This document shows, in pieces, positions 20,064 to 40,144 of a stretch of 64,000 nt of DNA. The position numbers and the translations under genes were made by a program. Position 1 is the first letter of the stretch. Each line of letters opens with the position of its first letter. The notes beneath the pieces are model-generated. The model was not told the origin of the DNA, did not search any database, and saw only the letters and a list, made by a program, of their open reading frames with translations. This DNA comes from Candidatus Latescibacterota bacterium. GTDB taxonomy: Bacteria > Latescibacterota > UBA2968 > UBA8231. Location: NCBI GenBank assembly GCA_965206595.1, contig OZ242214.1, forward strand, positions 2,944,001 to 3,008,000. Direction: 5' to 3'.

Positions 20064-20172
20064 TTTCTGGAGTGTGCCGTGTTCGGGTACGCATGCCAGC
20101 GGCCGTCACATCGGAAAAAGCCCCAGCACCTGTCCAGTGCGTGTCGCCCCTCCCCGGAACGCCGGGCCTTGG

Positions 20173-20826
20173 TCAGCTCGGGACAGTCTGCCTGGACTTT
20201 GCCCTCAGCGCCCTGGAGAGCGAACTCTTCATCCGATCGTCGAGACGGTAGAAGGACTCTTCCCCGGGTCCGATGTATCCCGGAAACACGTAGTCCACCC
20301 GCAGCTTCTCGAGTTTGGCGAGCTGGGGACGCCAAAGGCTCACCCGGTGCGGGTTGAATTGCATGTCCCACTTGTTGTCCCGCAGGTAGAGGGCGTGACT
20401 CGTGAACAGGTAGTACTTGCCCCTGTGCCGCCACCGGTAAACGCTGTGTCCGGCTGAGCAGGTAGGGAAGAACAGCGCCTCGAAGTCCGAGCCGTGTTGT
20501 ACGCCTTCGTCCCCGAACTGCACTTCCGGACACTTCGTCTTCTGACGTACCCCTCTTCGATCGGTACGATGATGATGGAGCCTGCATCCGAATCGATCGT
20601 GCAGATCTTCGTGCAGGCCGTCGCGATAGATATCGTGATGGTGCGAGACCCATTGGCTGTCGAGGCCGCCCAATCGCTCGATTTCATCCATGTCCCCGGT
20701 CGAGGGGCCGCTTTGGTGGCAAACCATCAGATTGCCCTCTTTGCGCACGAGTAGATACGTGTGACTCGTCCCCCTCCTGTTGGGGGCGCCGCCAAAGCGA
20801 TAGAGGTTTGCGAAGATGCGTTCCAT
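20173..20826 (-). CDS. Metallo-beta-lactamase-fold protein with a degenerate motif
   Basis: SHTYLLV, WVSHHHD, PTCSAGHS, YLFT and YVFPG follow the MBL pattern. RBS GGAG upstream. Confidence 0.6.
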   Translation of the reverse strand: MERIFANLYRFGGAPNRRGTSHTYLLVRKEGNLMVCHQSGPSTGDMDEIERLGGLDSQWVSHHHDIYRDGLHEDLHDRFGCRLHHHRTDRRGVRQKTKCPEVQFGDEGVQHGSDFEALFFPTCSAGHSVYRWRHRGKYYLFTSHALYLRDNKWDMQFNPHRVSLWRPQLAKLEKLRVDYVFPGYIGPGEESFYRLDDRMKSSLSRALRAKSRQTVPS

Positions 20827-20840
20827 GGTATGCTCCCTGG

Positions 20841-21074
20841 TTAAGTGTGAGTTGCGCTTGTTTCCGGCGGGAAGCTGATTCCTCGACGCAAATACTTCAG
20901 CGCGGAGCCCTCGGCCTCGCCGATCACCACCGGCAATCTGCGTTTGCCATCGCGGTCCAACAGCCAGACCAGGAACTGGTCGCCCCGGGAGATCACATCG
21001 GCGATTTCAACCTTGGTCATGTCCTGCTTCCTTTCATCGATATCGCGCAACTCGGCGAAGAGCGGCCAGCGCAC
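20841..21074 (-). pseudogene. Fragment of a bifunctional nuclease (DUF151/BFN) domain
   Basis: LVWLLDRDGKRRLPVVIGEAEGSAL matches the BFN N-terminal motif and is then truncated. Confidence 0.5.
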
Positions 21075-21131
21075 GGTCCACCCGCACCCCGGTGCGCTGA
21101 AGGCGGGTTGAGAATCGTCCCGCCTGGGAAC

Positions 21132-21457
21132 TCACCCGGCCGCACGATCCGTTCTTTCAGATCGCCGAGGAGTCGACGGCGGTTCGTAGCGGACTACCTC
21201 GATCTGGTCTTCGCCCCTGCGAGCCTGCGCCAACTCGTACGAAGCCTGCCGGCGCAGCCAGAACTCCGCGCTCGACCATCCCGCCTTCTCCAGGCGAATG
21301 GCCATCTCCGGTGAAACGCCCGCATGGCCGTTCAATACGCGCGAAAGCGTGTGGCGGGCGACACCCAACACCCTTGCCGCTTCGGTGACGTTCAGACCAA
21401 GAGGTTCCAGGCAGTTCTTCCTGATGCTGAGGACGGGATGGGGGGGGTCATGGCCAT
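21132..21457 (-). CDS. higA: HigA-family antitoxin (HTH), frameshift in the C8 run near the start
   Basis: [49 protein letters not shown]. ATGs at 21457 and 21451 are one base out of frame across the G8 run at 21440-21447. Confidence 0.85.
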
Positions 21458-21474
21458 GGTTTCTCGCCTCTTCG

Positions 21475-21522
21475 CTAATGGTAGTCGATCAAGTCGACGT
21501 CGCTGGCGTCACCCTCCTCTAC
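21475..21522 (-). pseudogene. higB: 3' remnant of a HigB toxin
   Basis: [14 protein letters not shown] is the characteristic HigB killer-protein C-terminus and lies immediately upstream of higA. Confidence 0.75.
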
Positions 21523-21964
21523 ACATGTCAATAGCCGGCAGGGCCGCCCGGCACGCCCATACCGTACCTCGGCAGGCTAATGGACCGCTGAACCCGCCGA
21601 ATTCTGGTAGCGGCACCCTGTAATGGCGATTATCTCGCCGGCGCGGCCGCGCTTGCGCCAGGGTTACGTCCACCGGCTCCAGCACCCGGACCCCATTCAT
21701 CCGAGGATCTCGTCACCATGGCTCCGCAAAGGTAAGCCGGCACGCCGCCATGGGCCTGCGAGCCGAAGCCCGCGCGCAGCCCCGTCCCGACTTCACCCTG
21801 TTCGTGCCCCGAGGAGGGGGGCTATGGAAAGCCCCATGCCCGGCGCCGGAAGCAGCCGTACCACCTCCTGGGCCAAGGCTGTGAGGCCACGGGCACTGCC
21901 GGGAACGGACCCCTGGTCGCCCGAGGCGACAGTGCACCATCGAAATCAATTGGGAGCTGAGTTC

Positions 21965-24900
21965 ATGAAGGCGGCAATCATCTGTTCCATCGCCCTGCTC
22001 GGGTCTTTCGGCCATGCAGAAGCCCAGACCCTGGTCGAGGGCCGGGTGCGGCTGGCATCGGGCCAACCCGCGGCCGGGGCCCAGGTGCGGTTGTTCGATC
22101 TGTCCGATCTGCGCCGCTCGCTGGCAGCCACGGCCGACGAGACCGGGTACTTCGCCCTTCCCTCCGGGGCCCTGCGGGGGCCCGCGGCCGGGGGCCTCCA
22201 CCTGGGGCCGAACTACCCCAATCCGTTCAACCCCTCCACAGTCATCCCGTTCCACCTGCCGGCCTCGACGCCGGTGCGGCTCGAGGTCTTCAACCTCCTC
22301 GGGCAGCGGATAGCGATCCTGGTCGACGGGGAGCTGACGGCCGGCTCTCACACGGCGACCTGGAACGGCACGGACGCCGCCGGGCGGCCGCTGGCCGCGG
22401 GGGTCTACCTCTACCGGCTGAGCTATCCCGGAGGGACGGGGACCGGGTCGATGGTGCTGACCGACGGGCGGGGCGGTACTCCCGGCGCTGGCGGGGGCGC
22501 GCCTGCCGCCGCCTCCGGGCAGACCGCGGAGTCCGCCCAGGTGTACGGGCTGACGGTCTCCGGACCTGGCCTGGAGACCTTCGTCGACCCGGCCTTCCGG
22601 GTGGAGGCCGGCATGGCCCCGGTCGACCTCGTAGTCGAAGCGCTCGACAGCAGGCCCCGCGGCAAGGCGGCGGCAGCCTCCGGGCTGTTGGGGGACGTCG
22701 ACAACAGCGGCCTCGTCGATATCGTCGACGCCCTGCTCCTCGCCATGTACAGCGCCAACCCCTCCATCGTCATGCCGAACGGCGGCGACATCTCCCTGGG
22801 GGACGTCAACCAGGACGGCACGACCGACTTCACCGACGCCTGGCTCATCGCCAGATACAGCCTCGATCCCTCCGATCCTCTGCTTCCCCCGGGGATCGGG
22901 GAGCCGGTGGCGCCCCCCGCGGCCCTGTCGCCGGACCCGTCCACCGTCGAGTTCGGGAACGACGGCGCCTGGCACGCCTTCACGGTCCAGGCCGGCAAAC
23001 CGGTCGTGGTCGTGGCCAACCCGGGCGAAGATCTCCCGCTGGTGGAGATCAGCGCCAGGAGCACCCGGTCCAGCTTCTGCCCCGCGGAAGCCGGGGACGC
23101 CGTATCGACCGAAGACGGCAGCTCCATCTACCTGTCCGGGTGCGAGGCCGGCACCGGCACGGTCGAGCTGCGGCGGGCGGAGGACCAGTCGGTCCTGCGG
23201 ACCTACACCATCGAGATCGAGGACACCGGCGGCAGCCCCCCCGACCTCGTCGTCGACCTCCCTGCGGTCAGCGACAGCAGCCTGAATACCGGACAGTCCT
23301 TCACCCTGAGCGTCACCGTCCGCAACGAGGGGGAGAAGGACTCGGAGGCGACCACCCTGCGCTACTACCGCTCTACGAACCGAACGATCTCCAGCTGGGA
23401 TACGGAAGCCGGCACCGGGGCGGTGGGTGCTCTTTCCGCGGCCGGCACCGGCACCTTGTCGATCTCCCTGACCCCACCGGCGAGCCCGGGAACCTGGTAC
23501 TACGGCGCCTGTGTCGAGAGCGTCAGCGGCGAGGGGAACACGCGGAACAACTGCTCCCGCGGGGTGCGGGTCAGCGTCGGCAGCGCCGACCTGATCGTCG
23601 AGGCCCCTGCGGCCAGCGACGCCAGCCCGGACGCCGGGGCGGCCTTCACCCTGAGCGCTACGGTCCGCAACCGAGGAGACAGCCGCTCGACCCTGACGGT
23701 GTTGCGCTACTACCGCTCGGATGACGCCGCGATCTCGACCAGCGACACTCAGGTCGGGACCGACGCGGTGAGCTCCCTTTCCGCCAACGGCACCAGCGCC
23801 GAGTCGGTCCGGTTGACCGCGCCTCCGAGCCCCGGAACCTGGTACTTCGGCGCCTGCGTCAGGCCGGTGCCGGGAGAATCCGACACCGGGAACAACTGCT
23901 CCGAAGCGGTCGAGGTGACCGTCGCAAGCTCCGACCTGGTGGTCGAGTCCCCCGCGGTCAGCGACAGCAGCCCGGAGACCGGGGCCTCCTTCACCTTCAG
24001 CGCCACGGTCCGCAACCAGGGCAGCAGCCAGTCCGCCTCGACCGTGCTGCGCTACTACCGCTCGCAGGACGCAGCGATCTCCACCAGCGACGCACAGGTG
24101 GGAACCAACGCGGTGGGTGCCCTCCCCGCCTCCGGCACCAGCGCCGAGTCGATCTCCCTGAGGGCTCCGGCGAGCCCGGCAACCTGGTACTACGGGGCCT
24201 GCGTTTCCCCGGTTTCAGGGGAATCCGATACCGGGAACAACTGTTCGTCCGCGGTGGAAGTAACGGTCACGGCCCCGGAGCCTCGGCTCTCGAAGTTGTA
24301 CTGGACCGACTGGGGCACCGACACGATTCGCCGCGCCGATCTCGACGGCTCTCAGGTGGAAGAGCTGGTAACCGGAGCCGGACTGGAGGGACCTGACGGG
24401 CTGGTCATCGACGCGGCCGGCGGCCGGATGTACTGGACCGACGCCGGCACGGCCAGAATCCAGCGGGCCAACCTCGACGGCTCCCAGGTGCAGGACCTGG
24501 TCACTTCCGGACTCACCATCCCTGCGGGGATTGCCCTGGATACGGGTGCCGGCAAGATGTACTGGGCCGACGCCGGCACGGGGAAAATCCAGCGCGGAAA
24601 CCTCGACGGCTCGGGAGTCCAGGACCTCGTCACACGCGACGACGGACTTGCCTTTCCCACAGGATTGGCGCTCGATCCGGCGGCCGGAAAGGTCTACTGG
24701 ACCGACCCCGGCACCGACAGGATCCAGCGCGGAAACCTCGACGGCTCCCAGGTGCAGGACCTCGTTACCAGCGGGATCGACAATCCATCGGCGATCGCCC
24801 TCGATTTGAACGGGGGCAGGATGTACTGGACCGACCGCGGCACCCGGAAAATCCAGCGGGCAAGCCTCGATGGTTCCGGGGTGGAAGACCTGGTCGCCAG

Positions 24901-25087
24901 CGGCCTGGATCTTCCCGGTGGGCTGGCGCTGGACCTGCGTGGCGGAAAGATGTACTGGACCGACCGGGGCACCGGAAAGATCCAGCGGGCAAACCTCGAC
25001 GGATCCGGGGTCGAGGACCTGTTGACCACTGCCGACGGGCTGGAGCATCCAACGGGGCTGGCCCTGGCTGCGGAACCAGGGAATTGA
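21965..25087 (+). CDS. Secreted modular protein: N-terminal FlgD/T9SS-CTD-like domain, dockerin-like EF-hands, 3 CARDB-like domains and a YWTD (LDL receptor class B) propeller
   Basis: Signal peptide MKAAIIC..AEA, NYPNPFNPST, GDVDNSG/GDVNQDG, three PDL..YYGACV..NNCS units, six YWTD-type repeats. Confidence 0.85.
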   Translation: MKAAIICSIALLGSFGHAEAQTLVEGRVRLASGQPAAGAQVRLFDLSDLRRSLAATADETGYFALPSGALRGPAAGGLHLGPNYPNPFNPSTVIPFHLPASTPVRLEVFNLLGQRIAILVDGELTAGSHTATWNGTDAAGRPLAAGVYLYRLSYPGGTGTGSMVLTDGRGGTPGAGGGAPAAASGQTAESAQVYGLTVSGPGLETFVDPAFRVEAGMAPVDLVVEALDSRPRGKAAAASGLLGDVDNSGLVDIVDALLLAMYSANPSIVMPNGGDISLGDVNQDGTTDFTDAWLIARYSLDPSDPLLPPGIGEPVAPPAALSPDPSTVEFGNDGAWHAFTVQAGKPVVVVANPGEDLPLVEISARSTRSSFCPAEAGDAVSTEDGSSIYLSGCEAGTGTVELRRAEDQSVLRTYTIEIEDTGGSPPDLVVDLPAVSDSSLNTGQSFTLSVTVRNEGEKDSEATTLRYYRSTNRTISSWDTEAGTGAVGALSAAGTGTLSISLTPPASPGTWYYGACVESVSGEGNTRNNCSRGVRVSVGSADLIVEAPAASDASPDAGAAFTLSATVRNRGDSRSTLTVLRYYRSDDAAISTSDTQVGTDAVSSLSANGTSAESVRLTAPPSPGTWYFGACVRPVPGESDTGNNCSEAVEVTVASSDLVVESPAVSDSSPETGASFTFSATVRNQGSSQSASTVLRYYRSQDAAISTSDAQVGTNAVGALPASGTSAESISLRAPASPATWYYGACVSPVSGESDTGNNCSSAVEVTVTAPEPRLSKLYWTDWGTDTIRRADLDGSQVEELVTGAGLEGPDGLVIDAAGGRMYWTDAGTARIQRANLDGSQVQDLVTSGLTIPAGIALDTGAGKMYWADAGTGKIQRGNLDGSGVQDLVTRDDGLAFPTGLALDPAAGKVYWTDPGTDRIQRGNLDGSQVQDLVTSGIDNPSAIALDLNGGRMYWTDRGTRKIQRASLDGSGVEDLVASGLDLPGGLALDLRGGKMYWTDRGTGKIQRANLDGSGVEDLLTTADGLEHPTGLALAAEPGN

Positions 25088-25175
25088 TCTGGTCCCGTCA
25101 GGAGCTTTTTCAGAACGAGATGAACCCTGGCTCCACCTATACGAGACCTGATGTCCGGGAATGGTTGCGCAAGGC

Positions 25176-25365
25176 CGCCGTCACCGAAGCCGCGGAGATA
25201 GCACAGGGGCTGGTACGAAAGATTGCAGAATCGTGGCATTGGACACTGCGACCCCCTGCCTCAAGCATCGAGATCCCAGTCGAAGGACAACGCGGAAATT
25301 GAACTGATGGTGCCGGTCAGCGTTCCGTAATGGGACGACTCTCCGGGTTCAAGTATCGAGAAGTC
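25176..25365 (+). pseudogene. Decayed hicB-hicA toxin-antitoxin remnant
   Basis: VTEAAEIAQGLVRKIAES...ELMVPVSVP* (HicB-like end) overlaps by TAATG with MGRLSGFKYREV (HicA-like start at 25330), which is then cut off. Confidence 0.6.
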
Positions 25366-25756
25366 TTTGGGCGGCTTCGATATTTTAAGCGCAAGCTTAC
25401 CCTCTTGCGGTAGGCGCTTAAAGAATCTTCAGCTTCAGACGGCCATATGGCGTCCTTGCCGGACATGCGGGGCCGCCACTACCAGAACATTGAAACTCTC
25501 CCAGGCTCAGCGGCCAGGTTTTGTCCCCTTGCACTTATGCCTTGCCCTCCAGCCAACTGCCCGTCAATTGCAGCTTTACAGCAATCGGCTGCATTCCCAT
25601 GCAGGTCAGGCATTGAATCCTGTCGATTCGAAGCACGCTGAATGGTGTCGGTCTATGAGCCGGCCTTTCTGATTTACGGTTTCGATCTCCAGATTGCGTT
25701 TGACGCGCCGCACGCGTCCTGACTAGGATACAGGCCATGCAAAAGGTGAACCCTGC

Positions 25757-27115
25757 ATGGTAGCCAAAGGTGTCACGATGCTTCGATCCCTTTCCCTTGT
25801 CCTGATATTGACCGCACTGGCTGCGCCGGCTGTGGGGCAAACCGTCCCCACCGCAGCCGCAGAAACCGACACAACCGACGTCTACGAGACGCGGCGCAAT
25901 CACGTGCTCGCCTTCCCGAAGTACGTCTGGAACGCCCTGGTTTTCCCGCTCGGCAAGTTCACCATCTGGCTCGAGCGGAAAGAGATTCCCCAGCGGTTGA
26001 TCGAGATGTTCACCTTCCAGGACATCTTCGAGCTGTATCCGAACGCGACCCTGGGTGGAGAGACGGGAACCGCCGGCGGCATTTCCTTGCTTTACACCGA
26101 TCTGTTCGGACGCGGCAAGGGGATCTCGACAAGCTTTATCGCCAACCCCTCCAACTACAGCGGACTCGTCCTGTTCGAGGACCCGGGGATCGGGGGCGGT
26201 CCCTGGTACTGGAGCGCCACACTCGAAGCGCTGAAGACGGGAAATGAGGACGCCACCATTAACGGCGAGTTGCGCAGGTCCGGGTCCCTGCTCGATCACG
26301 AACGGAGAGATACCAGAATTTCTTTTGGGCGCCGCACCAACTACGGCGTGACCGAGGGGTACGAACCGGATGCGGTCCTCGAGCTGCGGCTGTCCCAGGG
26401 CTTCCGCAAGTTCGCCGCCGCCGATTTCGACCCCGGCGACTTTCCCGGTCTGAACGAGGCGATCAACCTGTTCTCCGTCGGTGGCATGGCCGCTTTCGAC
26501 GACCGGGACTTCAAGCCGCCGACCGCCTCGATCCGCCTGCCGCTGAACTACCAGCTGCCCGGGCGGGTGCTGCTTTTCGCCGACGACCGCTACTACAGCT
26601 TTCGCGACACCGCCTTCCCGGAGCACGGCGGGCTCGCGCGCATCGAGGCCGATTACGCAACTGGCTCCAATGACGTCCGGTATTTCCGCTACTCAGCGGA
26701 GCTTCAGCGCTTCTTCACCCTGTTCTTCAGGAACCGCATCCTCGGTGTCAGGGCCCGGCTCGAGAAGGCGCACGCCCTGGGAGACGGCAGCCTCATCCCC
26801 TATTCCGACCTGCCCACTCTGGGCGGGGATGGGCAGTTGCGCGGGTACCGGCGCGGATTCTTTCGCGACAAGGGCAGCCTGCTGTTGAGCGCCGAATACC
26901 GCTACCCGATCTGGGACACCTGGAACGCCGTCCTCTTCTGGGATGAAGGGCAGGTGTTCGACAGGTACGGCGACCTCGAAGCGGGCGGGTTCGAGTACAG
27001 CTTCGGCGCCGGAATCAGCGTGCGCACCGAGCGTTCCTTCCTGTTCGGGCTGCGCATCGCCCACAGCAAGGAGGAGAAGGCGTTGACCGGCTTCTCGCTG
27101 GAAAAGGAGTTCTGA
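25757..27115 (+). CDS. Omp85 (BamA/TamA-family) outer-membrane barrel without clear POTRA domains
   Basis: Signal peptide, LGGDGQLRGY loop-6 motif, SAEYRYPI, alternating beta-strands and a terminal Phe (LEKEF). Confidence 0.85.
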   Translation: MVAKGVTMLRSLSLVLILTALAAPAVGQTVPTAAAETDTTDVYETRRNHVLAFPKYVWNALVFPLGKFTIWLERKEIPQRLIEMFTFQDIFELYPNATLGGETGTAGGISLLYTDLFGRGKGISTSFIANPSNYSGLVLFEDPGIGGGPWYWSATLEALKTGNEDATINGELRRSGSLLDHERRDTRISFGRRTNYGVTEGYEPDAVLELRLSQGFRKFAAADFDPGDFPGLNEAINLFSVGGMAAFDDRDFKPPTASIRLPLNYQLPGRVLLFADDRYYSFRDTAFPEHGGLARIEADYATGSNDVRYFRYSAELQRFFTLFFRNRILGVRARLEKAHALGDGSLIPYSDLPTLGGDGQLRGYRRGFFRDKGSLLLSAEYRYPIWDTWNAVLFWDEGQVFDRYGDLEAGGFEYSFGAGISVRTERSFLFGLRIAHSKEEKALTGFSLEKEF

Positions 27116-28788
27116 TGAGTTCCCCGCAAGCCGCCATGCTGCTGGTCCTTGTGCTGTTGTCGCCGATCGCCGGCGGGGCCGTCACGGAGCTGACCACCGA
27201 TCCCGTCAAGTGGTTCGACGCCGACAACAAGCCGACCCCCGAGCCGGCCGAGGCCAAGGAGAACAAGGTCTGGGACTTCATCGACAAATCCTCCTTTTAC
27301 CAGGTCGGCAAGGTGCTGGACCTGGGGTGGACCGGGCGCCGGGTCGGAGACCTCCTCGGAATCGTAGGGCCGCGCCAGGCCGACAACGTCAACGCCCTCG
27401 ACGAGGTCCCCAACTCTTCCTGGTTCACCAACCGGCACTTCCTGATGCCGATGACCCTGGAAGAGCTTGCCGAGGGACCCGGCTTCGCCGAACCGGACGA
27501 CAGCGGACCCTGGGAGGTCGTCGCCGGCAAGTTCGAGGGGATCACCGCGGGCTTCACCATCAAGGACGCCTCGAAGCGGTACTTCCTGCTCAAGTTCGAT
27601 TCCGAAGGGAACAACGAGATGGGTTCCGGGGCCGAGGCGGTCGTCACCAAGGTGCTGTACGCCGCCGGCTACAACGTTCCGCTCAACTCGGTGGTCTACT
27701 TCGATCCCGGACAGCTGCAGATCGGCCCGAAGGCCAGGGTGCCGGCGAAAGAGGGCGGCAAGCGGCCGATGACCCCGAAGGATCTGCAGAAAATCCTCGA
27801 CCACATCGCCCCGGAGCCGGACGGCACCCTGCGCTGCCTGGCCAGCCAGTTCCTCACGGGCAAGCCGGTCGGCGTCTTCAACTACAACGGCCGCCGCGGG
27901 GACGACCCCAACGACCGGGTCGACCACGAGCACCGGCGCGAGCTGCGGGGGCTGCGCGTCATCGGCTCCTGGCTCAACGACGCCGACCGCCGCGCCGCCA
28001 ACACCCTTGACATGTACGTGACCGAGGACGACCGCCGCTACGTCCGCCACTACCTGATCGACATGGGCTCCGCCCTCGGCAGCGGCAGCTGGAGACCGCA
28101 CCAGCCCAAGCACGGCAACGAGTACATGGTCGACCCGCGCACGATCTTGCGTTCGCTCGTATCGCTTGGGTTCTACATGAAGAAGTGGGAAGAGCCGGTG
28201 CCGATGCCCTACATCTCTCTCGGCTATTTCGAGAACGAGACCTTCCGTCCCGGGGACTGGGTGCCGGACTATCCCAACCCCGCGTTCGAACGCTGCACCA
28301 ACCGGGACGGGTACTGGGGCGCCAAAATCGTCATGGCCTTCCGGGACGACGAGATCCGCGCCATGGTGGAACGGGGGCGCTACTCGGATCCGGGCGCGAG
28401 CGCGGAGCTGACCCGGCTTCTGGCCGAGCGCCGGGACATGATCGGGCGCTACTGGTTCGAGCGCGTCAACCCGCTGGATCGCTTCGAAGTCGGAGACGGC
28501 CGGCTTCGCTTCGTCGATCTCGCCGTGGAGGGGGGGCTGGTGCCGCGCGCCTCGCGGCAGTGGCGGTATGCTGCTATCGATGCAGACGGGGACCGGATTG
28601 CCGATCCGCGGGTTGTAGCCGAGCCGGTCATCCCGATCGGCGAGGAGGCGCAACCCGGGCAGTTTTTCGGCTACCGGATCCGGAGCCGCAGCGGCGAGAG
28701 CGGGAAGTGGAGCAAGGATACCACGGTGTTTCTCTACAAACACGAAGACGGCCGCCTGCAACTGGTGCGGATCGAACGGGAGGAGTAA
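27115..28788 (+). CDS. Secreted protein with an atypical (HipA/PI3K-PI4K/CotH-like) kinase-fold signature
   Basis: Signal peptide, GKFEGITAG..YFLLKFD, AEAVVTKVLYAAGYNVP, WLNDADRRAANTL and YLIDMGSALG. TGATG coupling to the Omp85 gene. Confidence 0.65.
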   Translation: MSSPQAAMLLVLVLLSPIAGGAVTELTTDPVKWFDADNKPTPEPAEAKENKVWDFIDKSSFYQVGKVLDLGWTGRRVGDLLGIVGPRQADNVNALDEVPNSSWFTNRHFLMPMTLEELAEGPGFAEPDDSGPWEVVAGKFEGITAGFTIKDASKRYFLLKFDSEGNNEMGSGAEAVVTKVLYAAGYNVPLNSVVYFDPGQLQIGPKARVPAKEGGKRPMTPKDLQKILDHIAPEPDGTLRCLASQFLTGKPVGVFNYNGRRGDDPNDRVDHEHRRELRGLRVIGSWLNDADRRAANTLDMYVTEDDRRYVRHYLIDMGSALGSGSWRPHQPKHGNEYMVDPRTILRSLVSLGFYMKKWEEPVPMPYISLGYFENETFRPGDWVPDYPNPAFERCTNRDGYWGAKIVMAFRDDEIRAMVERGRYSDPGASAELTRLLAERRDMIGRYWFERVNPLDRFEVGDGRLRFVDLAVEGGLVPRASRQWRYAAIDADGDRIADPRVVAEPVIPIGEEAQPGQFFGYRIRSRSGESGKWSKDTTVFLYKHEDGRLQLVRIEREE

Positions 28789-28791
28789 AAA

Positions 28792-30237
28792 ATGGAACTT
28801 GCGGGGTTCGGGTTCTTCCAGGGTTTCATGCACTACCTCGGCGTGCTGCAGTGGCCGCTGGTCGTCGTCTTCCTGCTTTACATCGCATGGCAGATAAGGG
28901 GTTTCGCACCGGAAGAGCGGCTGCAGACCGGCCTGATGTTCTCCTACTTCTTCCTGGTGATCACCACCTTCTGGATCCTCAAGCCGATCAAGAAGGGGCT
29001 CTTCATCGGCTACTACAAAGGGATCGGCGGCTTCGACCTGCTGGGCTGGCAACTCGACGCGGCGCAGGCGGAGCTGCTGGCCAAAGTCCTCAACATGGCG
29101 GTCGCCGCCGCGGCGGTCGCGGTCTTCACCCTTCTCGCCCGCTCCTTCCGGCGCCAGCAGCTCACCTTCATCCTGTCGGGCTTTTTCATCCTCTGTTACC
29201 TGGCCTTCAGCTTCCTCCTGGACAATGCCGGGGGCGGCACCGTCTGGACCTTCTACCTGTTCGGAGACCTGTTCAGCACGTTGATGGTCGCCACTTTCTT
29301 CGCCTTCCTCAACGACAGCGTCGATCCTTCCTCCGCCAAGCGGCTCTACGGGCTGATCGGTCTCGGGGGGGTTTCGGGGGGCTTCTTCGGCAGCGCCGTC
29401 GTCGGCGTCAACGTCAAGAGCCTGAGCCCGGCGCTGTCCATGTGGTTGTGCCTGGCGATCGCCGTCGCCATCGCCCTTATCGCCATGGCCGCGGGCCGGG
29501 TGGTAAACCGCAAGTTGGCGGCGAATGAAACCGGGGAAAGCAAGGCGGAGGAAGCATCCGATTCCCAAGCGGCCCCGGCTGAGGATCAGCCGCAGGGCAA
29601 TCCGGCATGGGAAGGTGCGCGGCTCGCTCTGCGCTCCCCTTACCTGCTGTCGGTTGTGGCCATCGTCGGCCTATACGAGATGGTCTCCACCATAATGGAT
29701 TTCCAGTTCACCTCCACGGTGCTGCACTACCTCGACGGCCCCCAGATCGGCGAGCATTTTCCGCGCGTGTTCACGTTCACCAACATGGTTGCGCTGGTCG
29801 TTCAGCTGTTCCTGACGAGCTTCGTGATGACCCGCTTCGGCGTCGGCCCGGCGCTGCTGTTCCTGCCGGTAGCAGCTCTTCTGGGTTCGGCAGGCTTCCT
29901 GATCGCCCCGGTGCTCCTCCTCGGAAGTTTGCTGAACACCACCGACAACGGCTTCAGCTACTCGATCAACCAGTCGGCCAAGGAAGCGCTCTACGTCCCC
30001 ACCACGCGAGACGAGAAGTACAAGGCCAAGGCTTTCATCGACATGTTCGTGCAGCGGTTCGCCAAGGCACTGGCCGTCGGCCTGAGTCTCCTGATAACGA
30101 CGCTCTTCGCAGGGTATTCGAGCATTCGCTGGCTGTCGCTGATAACCGCGGCCATCCTGCTGCTGTGGATCCTCGCCGCCCGTTACGCAGGACGAACCTT
30201 CCGCGAGAAAGAAGAAGCGGCTGCGCAGTCTGGGTAA
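28792..30237 (+). CDS. NTT/TLC-family (ATP/ADP translocase-like) MFS transporter
   Basis: About 12 hydrophobic helices. Motifs FWILKPIKKGLF, AKRLYGLIGLGG and YSINQSAKEALYVP..EKYKAKAFID..RFAKA. Confidence 0.85.
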   Translation: MELAGFGFFQGFMHYLGVLQWPLVVVFLLYIAWQIRGFAPEERLQTGLMFSYFFLVITTFWILKPIKKGLFIGYYKGIGGFDLLGWQLDAAQAELLAKVLNMAVAAAAVAVFTLLARSFRRQQLTFILSGFFILCYLAFSFLLDNAGGGTVWTFYLFGDLFSTLMVATFFAFLNDSVDPSSAKRLYGLIGLGGVSGGFFGSAVVGVNVKSLSPALSMWLCLAIAVAIALIAMAAGRVVNRKLAANETGESKAEEASDSQAAPAEDQPQGNPAWEGARLALRSPYLLSVVAIVGLYEMVSTIMDFQFTSTVLHYLDGPQIGEHFPRVFTFTNMVALVVQLFLTSFVMTRFGVGPALLFLPVAALLGSAGFLIAPVLLLGSLLNTTDNGFSYSINQSAKEALYVPTTRDEKYKAKAFIDMFVQRFAKALAVGLSLLITTLFAGYSSIRWLSLITAAILLLWILAARYAGRTFREKEEAAAQSG

Positions 30238-30306
30238 GGGGCAGGACCTGAGCTTAAAAGAGATCGTGCAACCCCCTGGTGGATGCTCTACAACTTAAGT
30301 GCCTGC

Positions 30307-31230
30307 TCAAACATGGACACCGGGGATCGATGGTTCTCCGGTAGGGCATTCGAGCGAGAGATGGCGGTAGGCGAACTCTATCCGGTCGTTCTTGCCGAAA
30401 GCGTCGACGATTTTCCCCACGATCTCGCTGGAGATGCGTTCGCGCTCCACCGCAATGGACTTGTAGCGCAGCCGCATCGTTATGCCGGAATGAAAGAATT
30501 CAGCACGGACGAACGGAGTCTCTCCGGTCTCCTCGATGATCTCCCGGGTCACCTCGGAGGCGCAGTCGATCAAGGTCTGTTCTGACAACCGGTAGTCCGA
30601 CTGATAGGAGATCCGGACCGGCACTTCGTCAAGTATGTACTTGGCTTCGGTGGAAACCGCGTAGTTGGTGACCATCTGGTCGAACAGGATCGCATTGGGG
30701 ATCAGAACCGCCCGATTGGATGATTCTTCCCCGCCGATGGTCCCGCCCACTTCCCCGAGCATAATATGGGTGGGACTTATGTCGAGCACGTCCCCCCGCA
30801 CTCCCTGAAGTATGATCCGGTCCCCGATCTGGAAGGGCCGTTTGATCATTACCATGAGCCAGGCCGCCACCCCGGTGACCGGCCGTTGCAGAGACCAGCC
30901 CAGGATCATGCTGAGGAAGGCAGCGCTTATCCCCATGGCCGCGAATGAACCGGACAGGCTGACGACCATCAAAATGATCCCGGCCAACAGAAAGGTATAC
31001 TTCAACAGGGAGTGGACCCGGTGGATCTGCACCTCCCGGCGATTCTGGGCTCGCATGGCCCCCAGCACCAAGCGCTTGATAATTTTGTAGAGCAAAACAA
31101 TGACGGTAAGAGCCAAAGCCGCAGGAAGGAGATATACGATTATTTCAAGGATCTCCCTTAACAGTTCAGGGACATGGTGGGAGACCCATCCCTCGGTGCT
31201 GTTCAGCCAGTCAGTTATTACTTGTGGCAT
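30307..31230 (-). CDS. MscS-family mechanosensitive channel
   Basis: Three TM helices, RPFQIGDRI, GDVLDI and IPN motifs. Confidence 0.88.
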   Translation of the reverse strand: MPQVITDWLNSTEGWVSHHVPELLREILEIIVYLLPAALALTVIVLLYKIIKRLVLGAMRAQNRREVQIHRVHSLLKYTFLLAGIILMVVSLSGSFAAMGISAAFLSMILGWSLQRPVTGVAAWLMVMIKRPFQIGDRIILQGVRGDVLDISPTHIMLGEVGGTIGGEESSNRAVLIPNAILFDQMVTNYAVSTEAKYILDEVPVRISYQSDYRLSEQTLIDCASEVTREIIEETGETPFVRAEFFHSGITMRLRYKSIAVERERISSEIVGKIVDAFGKNDRIEFAYRHLSLECPTGEPSIPGVHV

Positions 31231-31608
31231 CGGTCGGTTTCTTCTCCTTTGCGATGGTAAAAGGCCTTTGGTGTTCTGTTTTCCTCGGGAAGCGGTGCCG
31301 AAGGCATCGCCGCCCGCCCGGCTCCCCCCCTTCCCTGCGCGCCGTCCGCGATCCTTCGATCCAAAAAAAGGAGCCTGTCATCTGCAAGCTATCCGGACAG
31401 AAAAAGCGCGTCAACGCACCCGGAATCCGGCTCTGTGCCAGGAAGGCCGCCATGGCCGACGATCCGGATGCCCGCATCGAGACGGTCCGGTCCTGATCCC
31501 CTCAAGGGTAAACCTGCCCATGCCCTGGCTACCATCCTCAACAGGGCTTCCGGTAAGTCGGAGCGGGATCCGCGTCTGTAGGGGAAGCGGCTTCGCTGGA
31601 ATTAAAAG

Positions 31609-31671
31609 GGACAGCAACTGTCCGCGTCGGGTTTTTTTTGACATGCCGGACGCAACGGACACCCCCTGTCC
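31609..31671 (+). promoter_or_regulatory. Two GGACA-N5-TGTCC palindromic operators flanking a TTGACA hexamer
   Basis: GGACAgcaacTGTCC at 31609-31623, TTGACA at 31638-31643 and GGACAcccccTGTCC at 31657-31671, just upstream of the WYL gene. Confidence 0.7.
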
Positions 31672-31708
31672 CCTTGGAGCCCATCTTTACCGTTGGGAGG
31701 ATGAAGCT

Positions 31709-32695
31709 ATGCTCATATCCGATGCGATCCACAAGGCGGATCGACTCGAACAGATCAAGGTACTGTTCCGGCGGCGGCCCGAAGGGGTAGGGACCGGTGA
31801 AATCGCCCGGCTGCTGGGCGTCAGCCAACGGACTGCCCGGCGCTATGTGAAGGAGCTGTCGGAGCACGGACGGCTGCCGGTGTACCGGGAAGGCCGTGTC
31901 TGGAAGTTGGTGGAAGGCGGGCACATCGACCTGCTTCGCCTCCAGCTGAACCTCGACGAGGCTCTCTCGCTCTACCTGGCGGCGCGGATGCTGTCCGCCT
32001 ACAGCGACAAGCACAATCCGCACGTGGTAGCATCCCTGCTCAAGCTCGCGGCAACCTTGCCCGACGCCATCGGGGCGCACGTCGAGCAGGCGGCCGTGGC
32101 GGTTTCCCAAAGACGGCTTGCCCCGGACTACATGAAAGTCCTCGAAGGTCTCACCCGGGCCTGGGCAGGCCGGCGGCAGGTCCAGATCGTTTATCGCGAT
32201 CCCATCACCGGGACGCGCTCCGAGCGCCTGTTCGACCCCTTTTTCATCGAGCCTTCCTTCTTGGGCTATTCTTGCTACGTGTTCGGGTTCGATCACTTCC
32301 GCCAGGCGATCCGCTCCTTCAAGGTCGAGCGGCTGGAAGAGGTCGAGGTGTTGGAAACCCGTTTCGAGCCGTTGCCGGATTTCGATCCCTACGACTACCT
32401 CAGGCACGCCTGGGGGATCAGGGGCGGCGACGAGGTGGTGGAGGTAAGATTGCGGTTTTCCAGAAACGCGGTCTATCGGGTCAACGAATCGGACTGGCCC
32501 GGGGTGGTGGCCCGGGAGGAAGACCGGGAGGGGCGCTGTACGCTGACGTTTCTGGTCAATCACATTCTGGAAATCAAGTCCTGGATCAGGGCATGGGGAC
32601 CGGAATGCGAGGTGTTGGGCCCGGAGGAGCTGCGCCGGGAGATCGGGGAGGAGATGAAGGCTGCGACAGAGCTGTATGGGGACGCCGGAGAATAG
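31709..32695 (+). CDS. HTH-WYL-WCX transcriptional regulator
   Basis: EIARLLGVSQRTARRYV (HTH), YVFG..IRSFKVERL (WYL) and WIRAWGPECEVLGPEELR (WCX). RBS GGAGG, ATG at 31709. Confidence 0.92.
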   Translation: MLISDAIHKADRLEQIKVLFRRRPEGVGTGEIARLLGVSQRTARRYVKELSEHGRLPVYREGRVWKLVEGGHIDLLRLQLNLDEALSLYLAARMLSAYSDKHNPHVVASLLKLAATLPDAIGAHVEQAAVAVSQRRLAPDYMKVLEGLTRAWAGRRQVQIVYRDPITGTRSERLFDPFFIEPSFLGYSCYVFGFDHFRQAIRSFKVERLEEVEVLETRFEPLPDFDPYDYLRHAWGIRGGDEVVEVRLRFSRNAVYRVNESDWPGVVAREEDREGRCTLTFLVNHILEIKSWIRAWGPECEVLGPEELRREIGEEMKAATELYGDAGE

Positions 32696-32833
32696 CCGGA
32701 ATCTGCGGCCTGTGGACGTGCCCTCTACCTGGGAAATCGACCGTGGATGTTCGATCGATACGGTTACGTGAAATGTCTTCCTGACAAGCGGCAGATCCGT
32801 CAGGATGCGCGACTACATAGGGGACCAAGCAAT

Positions 32834-35800
32834 ATGAAAAAGGCAATCGGCTGTCTCGTGTGGCTGTTGTCGAGCCTGCAGGCAGGAGCGGAGCCCCTTG
32901 TGGAGGGGCGGGTGAGGCTGGCTTCCGGGGAACCGGCGGCCGGGGCGCAGGTGCTGCTGTTCGACCTGACCGACCTGCGCCTGGCGCCGGTCGCTGCGAC
33001 CACCGATGAAGCGGGGTATTTCGCGCTGCCATTCGGTGGGTTGCGGGCATGGATGCCGGTTCTGCCGGAGCGCTTCGAGCTGGGGCACAACTACCCCAAT
33101 CCGTTCAATCCTTCCACCATCATCCCCTACCAGCTGCCGGCCTCGACCCGGGTGCGGCTCGAGGTCTTCAACATCCTGGGTCAGCGGGTGACGACCCTGG
33201 TCGACGGGGAACGTGCGGCCGGCTTTCACACGGCCCGCTGGGACGCCACCGATGCCGCGGGGCGAGCGGTGGCCGCCGGCGTCTACTTCTACCGGCTGAA
33301 AGGCGGCGGGGTGCACCTGACCCGGCGCATGGTGTTGATCGACGGGCAGGCAGGGATTCCTTCGGCAGTGCCTGGCGGTCCGCCAACCGCCGGCCGTGAG
33401 GAGGGGGAAACGTCCCCGGTTCTCGGATTGGCCGTCTTGGGTGAGGGACTGGTCCCCTACCTCGACCCGGTTTTCCGGGTGGAAGCGGGCATGGCTCCGG
33501 TGGACATCGTCGTCGAAACCTCGGGCGGGATCCGGCATGCGAAGGTGGCTTCAGGCGGGATTCTGGGGGACGTCGACAACAACGGCCGGGTCGACATTTT
33601 CGACGCCCTGCTGGTGGCCGTGTACAGCGCCAATGCCAGCCTCGTCATGCCGAACAACGGCGATATTACCCTCGGCGACGTCAACGGGGACGGCCGGACG
33701 GATCTCACCGACGCTTTCCACATTGCCACGTACACAGTGGATCCCTCCGATCCGACGCTGCCCGCAGGAATCGGGGAGGCCCTGGTCCAGGCGACGGCAT
33801 CGCTGTCCCCCCTTCCCTCCACCGTCTCCTTCCAGGACGACGGGACCTGGCACCGGTTTACGGTCCAGGCCGGCGAGCCGATCGTGGTGGTGGCCAACCC
33901 CACGGGAACCACCCCGCGTGTGGAGATCACCAACCTCAGCACCACCAACTTTTGTCCAGCGGAAGCGAACGACGACCTGACACGCCAGGACGGCCAGGAT
34001 ATCGTCCTGGCCGGCTGCTCCTCAGGTACGGGTACAGTTGAACTGCGGCGGGCGTCCGACCAGACCGTCCTGCAAACCTATACCTTCACGATACAGGGAC
34101 AGGGAACCGGTGGAGGGGGCGACGGCAATGCCCCCGACCTGATTGTCGATGCCCCTACGGTCAGCACCAGCAGCCCGGCGGCCGGCGCCTCCTTCACCCT
34201 GAGGGCCACCGTCCGCAACCAGGGTGCGGCTCGGTCGGGATCGACCACCCTGCGCTACTACCGCTCCACCGACGCAACCGTTTCCACCGGCGACACCCAG
34301 GTCGGCACCGACCCGGTGAGCAGCCTGTCCGCTTCCCGCACCAGCTCCGAGTCGATCAGCCTCCGCGCCCCTTCCAGCACCGGAACCTACTACTACGGAG
34401 CCTGCGTCGAGAGCGTCAGCGAGGAAAGCAATACAGGGAACAACTGCTCCGCAGCCGTAACCGTTACCGTGGGCGCCGCCCCGGCTCCCGACCTCGTCGT
34501 CGATGCCCCTACGGTCACCAACAGCAGCCCCACAGCCGGGGCCTCCTTCACCCTGAGGGCCACCGTCCGCAACCAGGGTGCCGCTCGGTCGGGATCGACC
34601 ACCCTGCGCTACTACCGCTCCACCGACGCAACCGTTTCCACCGGCGACACCCAGGTCGGCACCGACCCGGTGAGCAGCCTGTCCGCCTCCCGGACCAGCT
34701 CCGAGTCGATCAGCCTGAGCGCTCCCTCCAGCACCGGCACCTACTACTACGGGGCCTGCGTCGAGAGCGTCAGCGAGGAAAGCAATACAGGGAACAACTG
34801 CTCCGCAGCCATAACCGTTACCGTGGGCGCCGCCCCGGCTCCCGACCTGATTGTCGATGCCCCTACGGTCAGCACCGGCAGCCCCGCGGCCGGCGCCTCC
34901 TTCACCCTGAGGGCCACCGTCCGTAACCAAGGTGCCGCTCGGTCGGGCTCGACCACCCTGCGCTACTACCGCTCCACCGACGCAACCGTTTCCACCGGCG
35001 ACACCCAAGTCGGCACCGACGTGGTGAGCGGCCTGTCCGCCTCCCGGACCAGCTCCGAGTCGATCAGCCTCCGCGCCCCCTCCAGCACCGGAACCTACTA
35101 CTACGGTGCCTGCGTCGAGAGTGTCAGCGAGGAAAGCAATACAGGGAACAACTGCTCCGCAGCCATAACCGTTACCGTGGGCGCCGCCCCGGCTCCCGAC
35201 CTGATTGTCGATGCCCCTACGGTCAGCACCGGCAGCCCCGCGGCCGGCGCCTCCTTCACCCTGAGGGCCACCGTCCGTAACCAAGGTGCCGCTCGGTCGG
35301 GCTCGACCACCCTGCGCTACTACCGCTCCACCGACGCAACCGTTTCCACCGGCGACACCCAAGTCGGCACCGACGTGGTGAGCGGCCTGTCCGCCTCCCG
35401 GACCAGCTCCGAGTCGATCAGCCTCCGCGCCCCCTCCAGCACCGGAACCTACTACTACGGTGCCTGCGTCGAGAGTGTCAGCGAGGAAAGCAATACAGGG
35501 AACAACTGCTCCGCAGCCGTCACCGTCACCGTGGGCGCCGCCCCGGCTCCCGACCTGATTGTCGATGCCCCTACGGTCAGCACCGGCAGCCCCGCGGCCG
35601 GCGCCTCCTTCACCCTGAGGGCCACCGTCCGTAACCAAGGTGCCGCTCGGTCGGGCTCGACCACCCTGCGCTACTACCGCTCCACCGACGCAACCGTTTC
35701 CACCGGCGACACCCAAGTCGGCACCGACGTGGTGAGCGGCCTGTCCGCCTCCCGGACCAGCTCCGAGTCGATCAGCCTGAGCGCCCCCTCCAGCACCGGA

Positions 35801-40078: not shown

Positions 40079-40144
40079 GCAGACCGTGCCCCAGTATTCG
40101 GGCACGGGTTGCCCGTCATCGACAGGAACAGGGGGCATTACCCC

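Follow-up and report, generated by a model that had tools for sequence, protein, structure and literature searches.

What would a kinase-like protein be doing between an outer-membrane barrel and a nucleotide carrier? To our knowledge, the bacterial envelope is assumed to be free of ATP-dependent chemistry beyond the inner membrane, and because of this assumption the workings of BAM, Lpt, Lol and LpxT have been explained by other energy sources. The question is raised by three genes in a 64,000-nucleotide stretch of DNA from a Candidatus Latescibacterota bacterium (the window, to which all positions refer; Table 1). A reading of this DNA from its letters and open reading frames (the sequence-only reading) had described the genes as tightly coupled, and the open reading frames lie exactly as it claimed. 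The barrel gene ends in GAG TTC TGA, the last A being shared with the ATG of the kinase gene (a TGATG overlap, with AAGGAG ahead), and the junction between the kinase and carrier genes reads GGGAGGAG TAA AAA ATG, a gap of 3 nt. We propose, with about even confidence, that the three genes encode a conserved cell-envelope module composed of an Omp85 barrel, a periplasmic kinase docked on it and a carrier that supplies ATP. The proposal draws on the coupling of the genes, the fold and motif conservation of the second product, predicted export signals, linkage across phyla, gene fusions and a complex prediction that passed its controls. The promoter-like sequence ahead of the barrel gene is not significant on its own, since two such sites occur in the region where 1.0 is expected, and no Rfam family reached its gathering score over positions 20000-33000.

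Table 1. Features of the barrel-kinase-carrier locus, with positions in the window.
Feature	Position	Strand	Basis
Sigma-70-like promoter match, 5' of the barrel gene	25700..25729	+	TTGACG-18-TAGGAT, 9/12 matches; weak, consensus only
POTRA-less (noNterm) Omp85-family outer-membrane barrel, 452 aa	25757..27115	+	Pfam PF01103, AF2, Foldseek
N-terminal helical segment (aa 55-85) of the barrel protein, contributing to the predicted kinase contact	25919..26011	+	Secondary structure of the model; predicted interface residues 41-78
Atypical kinase-fold protein, predicted to be exported, 557 aa, unannotated family	27115..28788	+	AF2 model, family alignment
Predicted N-terminal hydrophobic export signal of the kinase, ~aa 1-24	27115..27186	+	Hydropathy; family-wide pattern
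Kinase core, ~aa 126-450	27490..28464	+	VIA-align, residue conservation
Key residue K160	27592-27594	+	Conservation in alignment
Key residue E174		+	Conservation in alignment
Key residue D291	27985-27987	+	Conservation in alignment
Key residue N296	28000-28002	+	Conservation in alignment
Key residue D316	28060-28062	+	Conservation in alignment
C-terminal FN3-like beta-sandwich, ~aa 451-545	28465..28749	+	VIA-align
TLC/NTT-family (ATP/ADP-translocase-type) inner-membrane carrier, 481 aa	28792..30237	+	Pfam PF03219, solved NTT matches, hydropathy

The first product matches the Pfam Omp85 family with an E-value of 6.8e-16. Its AF2 model (pLDDT 81.6) has 16 strands at residues 91-447, preceded by a signal peptide (about residues 1-27), a disordered stretch (26-52) and two helices (55-85), and the chain ends in EKEF. 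The best Foldseek matches of the model are the barrels of BamA and TamA (E 5.6e-14), and the (V/L)RG(F/Y) motif of the Omp85 L6 loop is present as LRGY at residues 361-364, of which R362 and G363 reach 90% conservation or more. No POTRA domain was matched in Pfam, and the model has only the two helices ahead of the barrel; among the POTRA-bearing Omp85 groups of NCBIfam, the protein scored 25 bits against a cut-off of 297 for BamA and 11 bits against 625 for TamA. As the sequence-only reading had it, the protein is a POTRA-less member of the Omp85 superfamily; it is not of the POTRA-bearing BamA, TamA or TpsB kind.

The second product gave no match to Pfam (E up to 1), NCBIfam or the PDB, whether searched as a single sequence or as a profile, and the Pfam profiles HipA_C, HipA_2, Fam20 (PF06702) and CotH were among those without a match at this threshold. 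Its family comprises 4210 relatives among 8000 candidates scored, in 2920 representative clusters. The AF2 model (pLDDT 94.0, pTM 0.93) bears out the kinase fold anticipated from the motifs: the 13 best of 48,161 PDB representatives in VIA-align are all atypical kinases (Z 13.6-10.0), including CtkA (13.6), Fam20C (13.1), Fam20 (12.6), CotH and PI4KIIα (both 12.0), actin-fragmin kinase (11.3), HipA (10.9) and MavQ (10.0). Foldseek returned Fam20C at an E-value of 2.5e-5 and CtkA at 2e-4, with 19 matches at E up to 0.001, and the matches listed belong to the Fam20 family, CtkA and PI4KIIα. Residues 451-545 of the model are matched by FN3 domains in number (VIA-align Z 8-9.2, rmsd 2.2-3.1). In a language-model atlas, the Fam20C (0.81), HipA_2 and PI3/4K clusters came up within a range of 0.79-0.81, which has the value of a lead, and aligning the family profile to E. 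coli HipA with hhalign gave a probability of 0.5%, the single template sequence making this a weak test. The modelled structure places the protein in the protein-kinase-like (PKL) fold superfamily; its likeness to HipA/CtkA and to Fam20, as judged from the model, is structural only, with no membership by family profile. Long forms of the protein also occur: three of them (P0237, P0252 and P0270) had no Pfam match, the extension of about 600 residues gave only sub-threshold matches in the language-model atlas, and a further one (P0254) carries an N-terminal GT4 glycosyltransferase, which may be a gene-call fusion.

Within this fold, a Gly loop, a β3 Lys, an αC Glu, a catalytic loop and a DFG-like IDMG are present in the order claimed by the sequence-only reading, that is, the Gly-rich loop followed by LLKFD (K160), AE (E174), DADRRAAN (residues 289-296) and IDMG (315-318). 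Their equivalence to the catalytic residues of solved kinases was assigned by motif order and predicted secondary structure rather than by residue-level superposition. Conservation was counted over 356 aligned relatives, with totals for single residues varying from 342 to 352. The glycines of the loop are kept in 333/342 (G142) and 319/345 (G146), and K160 in 336/348; position 174 is Glu in 273/350 and Asp in 47/350, making it acidic in 320/350 (91%). D291, N296 and D316 are retained in 345, 343 and 345 of 352 sequences, respectively, so that the β3 Lys, the catalytic D-x4-N and the DFG-like Asp are each present in 97-98% of the roughly 350 relatives. The proposed catalytic loop thus stands as a conserved D-x4-N, with the catalytic Asp being the second one, D291, since D289 varies (Asp in 154 and His in 148 of 352). 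The alignment indicates that this motif set is not a product of chance. Invariance is strictest at D264, D267, H271, R275, R278, D398 and W401 (349-351 of 349-351 sequences), all outside the canonical kinase motifs.

The signal peptide claimed for the kinase-fold protein agrees with what is seen in its family, which is predicted to be exported. Its N terminus is hydrophobic and without a basic n-region, and a hydrophobic export-type segment opens 196 of 203 full-length relatives. A lipobox-like Cys is found in 70 of these 203, and about a third of the relatives are accordingly predicted to be lipoproteins.

The barrel and the kinase-fold protein form the firmest pair in the locus. We surveyed 80 of 584 confirmed loci, found with a 14-row alignment and spread over more than a dozen phyla. 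In 79 of the 80 the barrel gene precedes the kinase gene in the same orientation, and in 77 the two are directly adjacent; these counts overstate the support because the relatives are not independent. One such locus (L047), a carrier-barrel-kinase cluster, is in Aliifodinibius salipaludis WN023, the record of which is titled as a strain and not as a metagenome-assembled genome. Fusions, which the sequence-only reading had proposed to look for, do exist: in five natural ones the kinase forms the N-terminal part and is followed by a barrel without its signal peptide. A prediction of the complex between the two proteins, which the sequence-only reading had put forward as a check, gave ipSAE values of 0.73, 0.71 and 0.71 (partner pLDDT 88) against 0.00 for the best of three controls; 58 of 80 solved complexes attain the mark used, as do 2 of 110 mismatched pairs, figures that hold only roughly here because the alignments were our own. 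The predicted contacts on the barrel fall at residues 41-78, 323-327 and 381-393, which by strand count would be the N-terminal helices and periplasmic turns, and we read the model as docking the kinase on the periplasmic face of the barrel. Conservation at the predicted interface is not above that of the rest in either the barrel (0.356 versus 0.336) or the kinase (0.426 versus 0.489).

The third product belongs to the ATP/ADP-translocase-like family, as the sequence-only reading had supposed, with 78.6 bits in Pfam TLC against a cut-off of 21. It matches solved NTT carriers (9j3n, E 4.8e-14; 9j3j, E 5.6e-11), has about 12 hydrophobic segments by hydropathy and is the sole TLC-family gene in the 7.05-Mb genome; with 68.9 bits against 387.2, it falls far below the NCBIfam cut-off for the NTP/NDP exchanger group TIGR00769. 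The third partner found most often with the barrel-kinase pair is a TLC carrier. One lies within 5 kb in 41 of the 80 loci, and in 24 of those 44 whose flanks are complete; the sampled flanks of the other 39 loci contain none. The carrier link is therefore looser than the barrel-kinase link (41/80 versus 79/80 loci). In a sample of the phylum, the kinase is present in all 20 genomes that have a strong carrier orthologue, and in 37 of 151 genomes overall. In three genomes the barrel gene stands beside two carrier genes with the kinase gene 6 kb to 2.7 Mb away, so that all three pairwise linkages occur, and the three families are linked across phyla as the conservation of the triad would have it. 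A single carrier-kinase fusion, found besides the five of kinase and barrel, has a topology consistent with a periplasmic kinase. A dedicated NTT is not obligatory, since in three complete genomes, each a single contig, the barrel-kinase pair is intact but the TLC family is matched only marginally (about 22 bits over 60 residues), at a site far from the pair.

Phosphatase genes are also found beside the pair. Metallophos genes, coding for phosphoesterases predicted to be exported, lie next to it (within 5 kb) in 16 of the 80 loci, mostly with an N-terminal hydrophobic segment or a lipobox, and PAP2 phosphatase genes do so in 12. The Metallophos neighbours are closest to purple acid phosphatases, i.e. 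phosphomonoesterases, and show weak NCBIfam similarity to cyclic-nucleotide phosphodiesterases. A giant secreted LDL-receptor-B/CARDB protein encoded upstream was considered as a kinase substrate and set aside, because it recurs in only 10 of the 80 loci and the members listed are mainly close relatives.

Taken together, the module could work as follows. The POTRA-less barrel would be seated in the outer membrane, and the exported kinase-fold protein would dock under it, against the N-terminal helices and two periplasmic turns, taking the place held by POTRA domains in BamA and TamA. With a complete predicted site for phosphotransfer from ATP, the docked protein would most likely phosphorylate a substrate in the envelope, be it a protein, a lipid or a glycan. 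No source of ATP is known in the periplasm, and the co-encoded carrier would most plausibly swap cytoplasmic ATP for periplasmic ADP and so feed the kinase. In other genomes, the clustered exported purple-acid-phosphatase-like and PAP2 enzymes would undo the modification. At the centre of the scheme, then, the carrier would export ATP and the kinase would phosphorylate an envelope component; we infer the catalysis, a location in the periplasm rather than at the surface, what the carrier moves and in which direction, and which molecule is phosphorylated. That diderms of more than a dozen phyla export ATP through NTT-type carriers for a kinase held in an Omp85 complex, with exported phosphatases as erasers, is a broader claim that we put forward tentatively, at somewhat less than even odds.

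The same genes could instead serve a type V-like secretion, which we consider unlikely, with the barrel translocating the kinase to the surface or the medium for external targets and the carrier serving elsewhere, for example in nucleotide uptake. The translational coupling of the barrel and kinase genes and their near-constant linkage would suit such a role; the five fusions have the passenger-barrel order of autotransporters and would equally fit autotransporter-like export to the cell surface; and the best structural match, CtkA of H. pylori, is a secreted kinase reported to act on external targets. However, TpsB and type Vd barrels use POTRA domains, whereas only Omp85 is matched in the present barrel and no Pfam family at all in the kinase. 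The confident and reproducible docking predicted for the folded kinase on periplasmic turns, with no threading intermediate, also argues against secretion, as does the lipobox of the predicted lipoproteins, and an inner-membrane nucleotide carrier would be useless to a surface kinase, yet it is the commonest third partner.

Decidedly improbable, in our view, is a nucleotide-scavenging unit in which the barrel admits nucleotides, the kinase-fold protein binds or converts them in the periplasm, the carrier imports them in the manner of the NTTs of intracellular parasites and the phosphoesterases process nucleic-acid breakdown products. We know of no Omp85 barrel that acts as a solute channel, and half of the loci have the barrel-kinase pair without a carrier. 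A catalytic set for γ-phosphate transfer, as strictly kept as it is here, would be needless for a mere binding protein, and a periplasmic kinase would still require a phosphate donor. Salvage of phosphate and nucleotides typically involves Metallophos and PAP2 enzymes in the periplasm, and the weak resemblance of the Metallophos neighbours to cyclic-nucleotide phosphodiesterases would agree with scavenging, but the nearest relatives of these neighbours are phosphomonoesterases. In its favour, all characterised NTTs import nucleotides according to the accessible part of PMC5381601, which also states that no NTT of a free-living bacterium has been characterised and lists the functions of these forms as unknown. 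The least probable of these readings takes the kinase-fold protein as a structural POTRA substitute in a specialised Omp85 insertion or translocation machine, with any nucleotide binding being regulatory and the carrier link indirect. The kinase does lie at the POTRA position in the fusions and the predicted complex, and its strictest invariant residues (D264 to W401, above) are outside the kinase motifs. Pseudokinases, however, usually lose the Lys, Asp or Asn, which are kept almost throughout this family, and a structural role leaves the linkage to nucleotide carriers and phosphatases unexplained.

If an ATP-fed envelope kinase is the correct reading, reversible ATP-dependent phosphorylation would take place in a compartment described in textbooks as free of ATP, and a working assumption would be overturned. 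It would also give a function to an unannotated kinase-like family as wide as this one and a first physiological role to POTRA-less (noNterm) Omp85 barrels. Judging from the accessible part of PMC5381601, the same would hold for the carriers of NTT and NTT-HEAT-cNBD type in free-living bacteria. The literature searched (on Omp85 with kinase-like and TLC proteins; periplasmic kinases, ATP or phosphorylation; periplasmic ATP export; and novel kinase-like families) contained no description of the module; gene neighbourhoods may be listed in the supplements to PMC5381601 and PMC11358297. The module would, finally, be a bacterial counterpart to the eukaryotic secretory-pathway kinases.

Several known systems share parts of this arrangement. 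BamA is the docking site for the lipoproteins of the BAM complex, and an N-terminal enzymatic passenger is carried by PlpD and other type Vd autotransporters; here, too, an Omp85 barrel is combined with a putatively periplasmic partner or an N-terminal enzyme passenger, but POTRA domains are absent and the partner is a kinase-fold enzyme, with no relation to BamB-E or patatin detected. The noNterm Omp85 proteins, such as the Leptospira paralogues, have the same 16-strand barrel without POTRA; in the accessible part of PMC11358297 their neighbours are lipoproteins and adhesins and the word 'kinase' does not occur in the main text, whereas the present barrel has a fixed kinase-fold partner. The third product, a member of PF03219, is homologous to the solved NTTs. 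The NTT-HEAT(-cNBD) fusions of free-living bacteria described in the accessible part of PMC5381601 are the same as the long carriers of related loci, and the cNMP-binding genes beside those carriers also fit the NTT-HEAT-cNBD picture; 'periplasm' and 'export' do not occur in that paper, and an Omp85-kinase linkage is not mentioned in the accessible part.

Among the kinases, CtkA, a secreted Ser/Thr kinase of H. pylori (PDB 3akj), is the closest structural match (Z 13.6, rmsd 4.0, 228 residues), and CtkA and HipA-like kinases (HipA Z 10.9) share the D-x4-N spacing and the DFG-like Asp two strands later. The gene 2 product differs from them in that it is predicted to bind a barrel through its N-terminal region and to carry an export signal, ends in an FN3-like tail and has an Omp85 protein as its fixed partner. 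CotH acts in the mother-cell cytoplasm, where ATP is present, and the gene 2 product differs from it in its predicted site and in having no match to Pfam CotH. The CotH spore-coat kinases (PDB 5jda) have a similar atypical kinase fold (Z 12.0), are bacterial and act on an extracytoplasmic structure. From Fam20C and Fam20, the present protein, a kinase only by prediction from sequence and model, is set apart by the lack of Pfam membership and by its setting in a bacterial envelope with an Omp85 partner and an NTT/TLC carrier. It resembles them in its atypical kinase fold (Z 13.1 and 12.6), in a predicted activity outside the cytosol and in the need for a nucleotide carrier in a compartment that does not synthesize ATP, just as the eukaryotic secretory-pathway kinases are fed by a lumenal ATP/ADP exchanger.

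The barrel, kinase-fold and carrier genes form one unit, because the stop codon of gene 1 and the start codon of gene 2 have one base in common (TTC TGA / ATG, 'TGATG', with an AAGGAG box in front), the junction between genes 2 and 3 reads GGGAGGAG-TAA-AAA-ATG, the 670-nt gap upstream of gene 1 holds a weak promoter-like match, and the first gene 3' of gene 3, MscS-like, is on the opposite strand. The tight coupling of an Omp85 barrel, a secreted atypical kinase and an ATP/ADP-translocase-like carrier, proposed in the sequence-only reading, is thus borne out at the level of gene structure.

Genes of the module and its immediate flanks (window positions)
Feature	Position	Strand	Length	Remark
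Gene 1, barrel	25757-27115	+	452 aa	ORF
Gene 2, kinase-fold protein	27115-28788	+	557 aa	ORF
Gene 3, carrier (P0003)	28792-30237	+	481 aa	ORF
MscS-type channel gene	30307-31230	-		just downstream of module
WYL/WCX-domain HTH regulator gene	31100-32695	+		just downstream of module
Giant protein	21623-25087	+	1154 aa	flanks module; dockerin in addition
Giant protein	32747-39940	+	2397 aa	flanks module; paralogue of the 1154-aa protein

The MscS-type and WYL/WCX ORFs, which run on opposite strands, share ~130 nt; in one of them, therefore, the true start codon probably lies further downstream than the one called. The giant paralogues contain LDL-receptor class B repeats, up to 11 CARDB domains, an SGL/Vgb-lyase-like propeller and FlgD-Ig; their relatives precede the module in 10 of the 80 cross-phylum loci described below, chiefly in close relatives. 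The GC content is 47% at 1-2000 and 52% at 40001-42000 against a background of 60-70%, and these stretches may be foreign or non-coding.

The gene 1 product is a noNterm Omp85. It matches Pfam Omp85 (E 6.8e-16) in its C-terminal half only, and its NCBIfam scores for BamA and TamA are far under the cut-offs. Its AlphaFold model (pLDDT 81.6; alignment A3, 54 rows, partners taken from other loci) comprises a signal peptide, disorder at 26-52, two helices at 55-85 and 16 strands at 91-447, ending in ...EKEF, with BamA and TamA barrels as the best Foldseek matches (E 5.6e-14). It carries no POTRA domain.

Searches of Pfam, NCBIfam and PDB sequences with the middle protein, both as a single sequence and as a profile, gave no match. 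Its family is very large though without annotation: 4210 of 8000 scored candidates are relatives at E ≤0.001, those among the matches listed are all named 'hypothetical protein', and the family comprises 2920 representative clusters at 50% identity. The AlphaFold model (pLDDT 94.0, pTM 0.93; alignment A1, 56 rows) was compared with 48,161 PDB representatives, and the best 13 rows are all atypical kinases (Z 13.6-10.0), including CtkA (13.6), Fam20C (13.1, and 11.5 in a further row), Hydra Fam20 (12.6), CotH (12.0), PI4KIIα (12.0 and 11.7), actin-fragmin kinase (11.3), HipA (10.9) and, lowest of the 13, MavQ (10.0). Foldseek agrees (Fam20C, E 2.5e-5; CtkA, 2e-4); these matches support the kinase fold claimed earlier. 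Residues 451-545 resemble FN3 domains (Z 8-9.2). As a lead only, the nearest named clusters in a language-model atlas are Fam20C, HipA_2, LepB_N and PI3/4-kinase at 0.79-0.81.

Conservation was counted over 356 aligned sequences (270 proteins and 86 locus ORFs, mutually dependent). K160 is kept in 336/348, D291 in 345/352, N296 in 343/352, D316 in 345/352 and G318 in 291/352; position 174 is Glu in 273 and Asp in 47 of 350, and position 317 is Phe in 195 and Met in 145. In the predicted structure K160 ends strand 156-160, E174 lies within the next helix (169-184), helix 280-287 is followed by D291-x4-N296, and D316 comes after two strands, so that the modelled motif order is canonical. All kinase motifs listed from the sequence are present in the order given, while D289, the first Asp of DADRRAAN, proved variable. 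Stricter than the catalytic residues are D264, D267, H271, R275, R278, D398 and W401 (349-351 of 349-351), which belong to the invariant motif R-x-D-D-P-N-D-x3-H-E-H-R-R-E-L-R (residues 261-278, window 27895-27948) and the 398-401 region; these could bind a metal or the substrate. A hydrophobic N-terminal segment is present in 196 of 203 full-length relatives and a lipobox-like Cys in 70 of 203; the protein encoded in the window carries such a segment, though no basic n-region.

Complex prediction for the kinase with its Omp85 neighbour, a follow-up suggested with the sequence-only reading, used the mature barrel (29-452, A3) and mature kinase (24-557, A1) and gave ipSAE values of 0.73, 0.71 and 0.71, the best of three controls scoring 0.00, with a partner pLDDT of 88 and at least 70% of contacts common to runs. 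The ipSAE mark, reached by 58/80 solved complexes and 2/110 mismatched pairs, is a rough guide here since own alignments were used. The searches made found no solved complex of this barrel-kinase kind, which makes a recall-based pass unlikely. The predicted contacts join barrel 41-78, 323-327 and 381-393 to kinase 32-71, 90-99, 260-273 and 339-360, including residues 260, 266, 268-270 and 273 of the invariant-motif region. A strand count that takes the LRGY loop (361-364) for extracellular loop 6 makes periplasmic turns of 323-327 and 385-388, which would place the kinase on the periplasmic face of the barrel, where POTRA would be. Interface residues are no more conserved than average and include no catalytic residue. 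On the strength of the model, the two proteins probably form a stable complex.

The kinase-fold gene is present in 37 of 151 sampled genomes of the phylum. At 29 loci of other phylum genomes (1.5-kb flanks), the barrel is upstream in 23, not found in 5 and not assessable in 1, and the carrier is downstream in 15. A cross-phylum scan, with one genome per species and at least 584 confirmed relatives among 600 stretches, kept 80 loci from Latescibacterota, KSB1, Rhodothermales/Balneolaceae, Bacteroidota, Nitrospirota, Krumholzibacteriota, Gemmatimonadota, Marinimicrobia, Zixibacteria, Ignavibacteria, Calditrichaceae, Eisenbacteria, Acidobacteriota, Myxococcales and others. Iterated HMM searches of six-frame ORFs place a barrel upstream of the kinase on the same strand in 79/80, directly adjacent in 77 and with a Metallophos gene between in 2; at L109 none was seen in an upstream flank of only 1.85 kb. 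A TLC-family carrier is in the flanks of 41/80 loci (24/44 with full flanks; directly downstream in 15/69). The three families, whose co-occurrence was to be surveyed, are therefore linked across phyla.

Tandem arrays at five loci (L040, L110, L076, L062 and G110:C1:924918-931101), either barrel-kinase-barrel-kinase or 2-3 barrels round one kinase, indicate that the barrel-kinase pair duplicates as a unit. In three genomes of one genus (L116, L121 and L122; G028, G052 and G007), where the kinase gene has no barrel neighbour, the barrel gene has moved off and directly precedes short TLC and long TLC-HEAT carrier genes, with the kinase gene 6 kb, ~1.1 Mb or ~2.7 Mb away, so that barrel-kinase, kinase-carrier and barrel-carrier adjacency are all seen. 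A second Omp85 paralogue lies ~18 kb past the window end (L002, G000:C1:3025063-3028131); it shares 55% identity with gene 1 across 147 aa, extends past the locus edge, and is preceded by a 23-aa match to the kinase-fold C-terminal tail within a 219-aa frame. Two full barrel-kinase pairs occur in sister genomes of the genus, so this may be a second copy that has decayed or diverged.

Fusions, also suggested for the survey, were found among 11 domain-mapped matches in longer proteins. Five (P0273, P0278, P0279, P0281 and P0282) are kinase-then-barrel; their barrel part begins at profile position 26-53 without its own signal peptide, which makes a read-through artefact unlikely. In the usual gene order, moreover, the barrel comes first. 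One carrier-then-kinase fusion (P0277) is a single sequence on a single contig, in which the kinase signal/lipobox segment would act as a thirteenth membrane span, leaving the kinase outside. Five clusters of ~1150-aa forms (P0274, P0275, P0276, P0237 and P0280) add a ~600-aa C-terminal extension, for which Pfam gave no match and the atlas only sub-threshold ones.

The carrier scores 78.6 bits against Pfam TLC (cut-off 21), with MFS_1 matched more weakly, and 68.9 bits against TIGR00769 (cut-off 387). It has ~12 hydrophobic segments, finds homologues of solved structure in the NTT carriers 9j3n (E 4.8e-14) and 9j3j (5.6e-11), and is the sole PF03219 match in the 7.05-Mb genome. All 20 phylum-sample genomes with a strong orthologue (E ≤8e-71) have the kinase gene; P0003-like matches occur in 33/37 kinase-positive versus 20/114 kinase-negative genomes, relatives not being independent. 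Other neighbours include Metallophos phosphoesterases (16/80 loci), the majority bearing a lipobox or a hydrophobic segment at the N-terminus and with purple acid phosphatases as closest solved relatives (E ~5e-7), PAP2 phosphatases (12/80) and small cNMP-binding proteins (8/80). The presence of Ser/Thr kinases (13/80) and PAS histidine kinases (9/80) may reflect no more than how common such genes are in these phyla.

Our firm conclusion is that a widespread, unannotated kinase-fold protein, predicted to be exported and with an intact active site, is served by a POTRA-less Omp85 as its dedicated partner and probably forms a stable complex with it. The NTT-type carriers and exported phosphatases linked to this pair suggest a nucleotide-dependent envelope phosphorylation module, in which the inner-membrane carrier would supply ATP to the exported kinase on the periplasmic side of the barrel and the phosphatases would belong to the same module; we rate this whole reading as evenly poised. 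Against it count the lack of a carrier in half of the neighbourhoods sampled, three complete genomes whose intact pair is accompanied by only a marginal, distant TLC-like gene, and the free-living NTTs having no characterised substrate or direction in the available text of PMC5381601. A protein target would fit the Fam20C, CotH and CtkA fold matches and the purple-acid-phosphatase-like neighbours, and a lipid or LPS target is possible given the PI4KIIα and MavQ matches and the PAP2 neighbours.

Three other explanations bear on the same evidence. The barrel-kinase pairing could reflect type V-like export of the kinase to the surface, which we consider unlikely, the modelled docking being periplasmic. 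The carrier could serve nucleotide scavenging, which seems less likely again beside a kinase with conserved catalytic residues. Least likely of the three, the kinase-fold protein, docked where POTRA would be, could be mainly a structural POTRA substitute.

Literature searches over main texts found no description of a barrel-kinase-carrier module. The words periplasm and export do not occur in the available text of the NTT diversity study (PMC5381601), nor does kinase in the available main text of the Leptospira noNterm Omp85 paper (PMC11358297). The long carriers at these loci are NTT-HEAT and NTT-HEAT-cNMP fusions, and they share this architecture with forms from free-living bacteria that PMC5381601, in its available part, lists as function-unknown.
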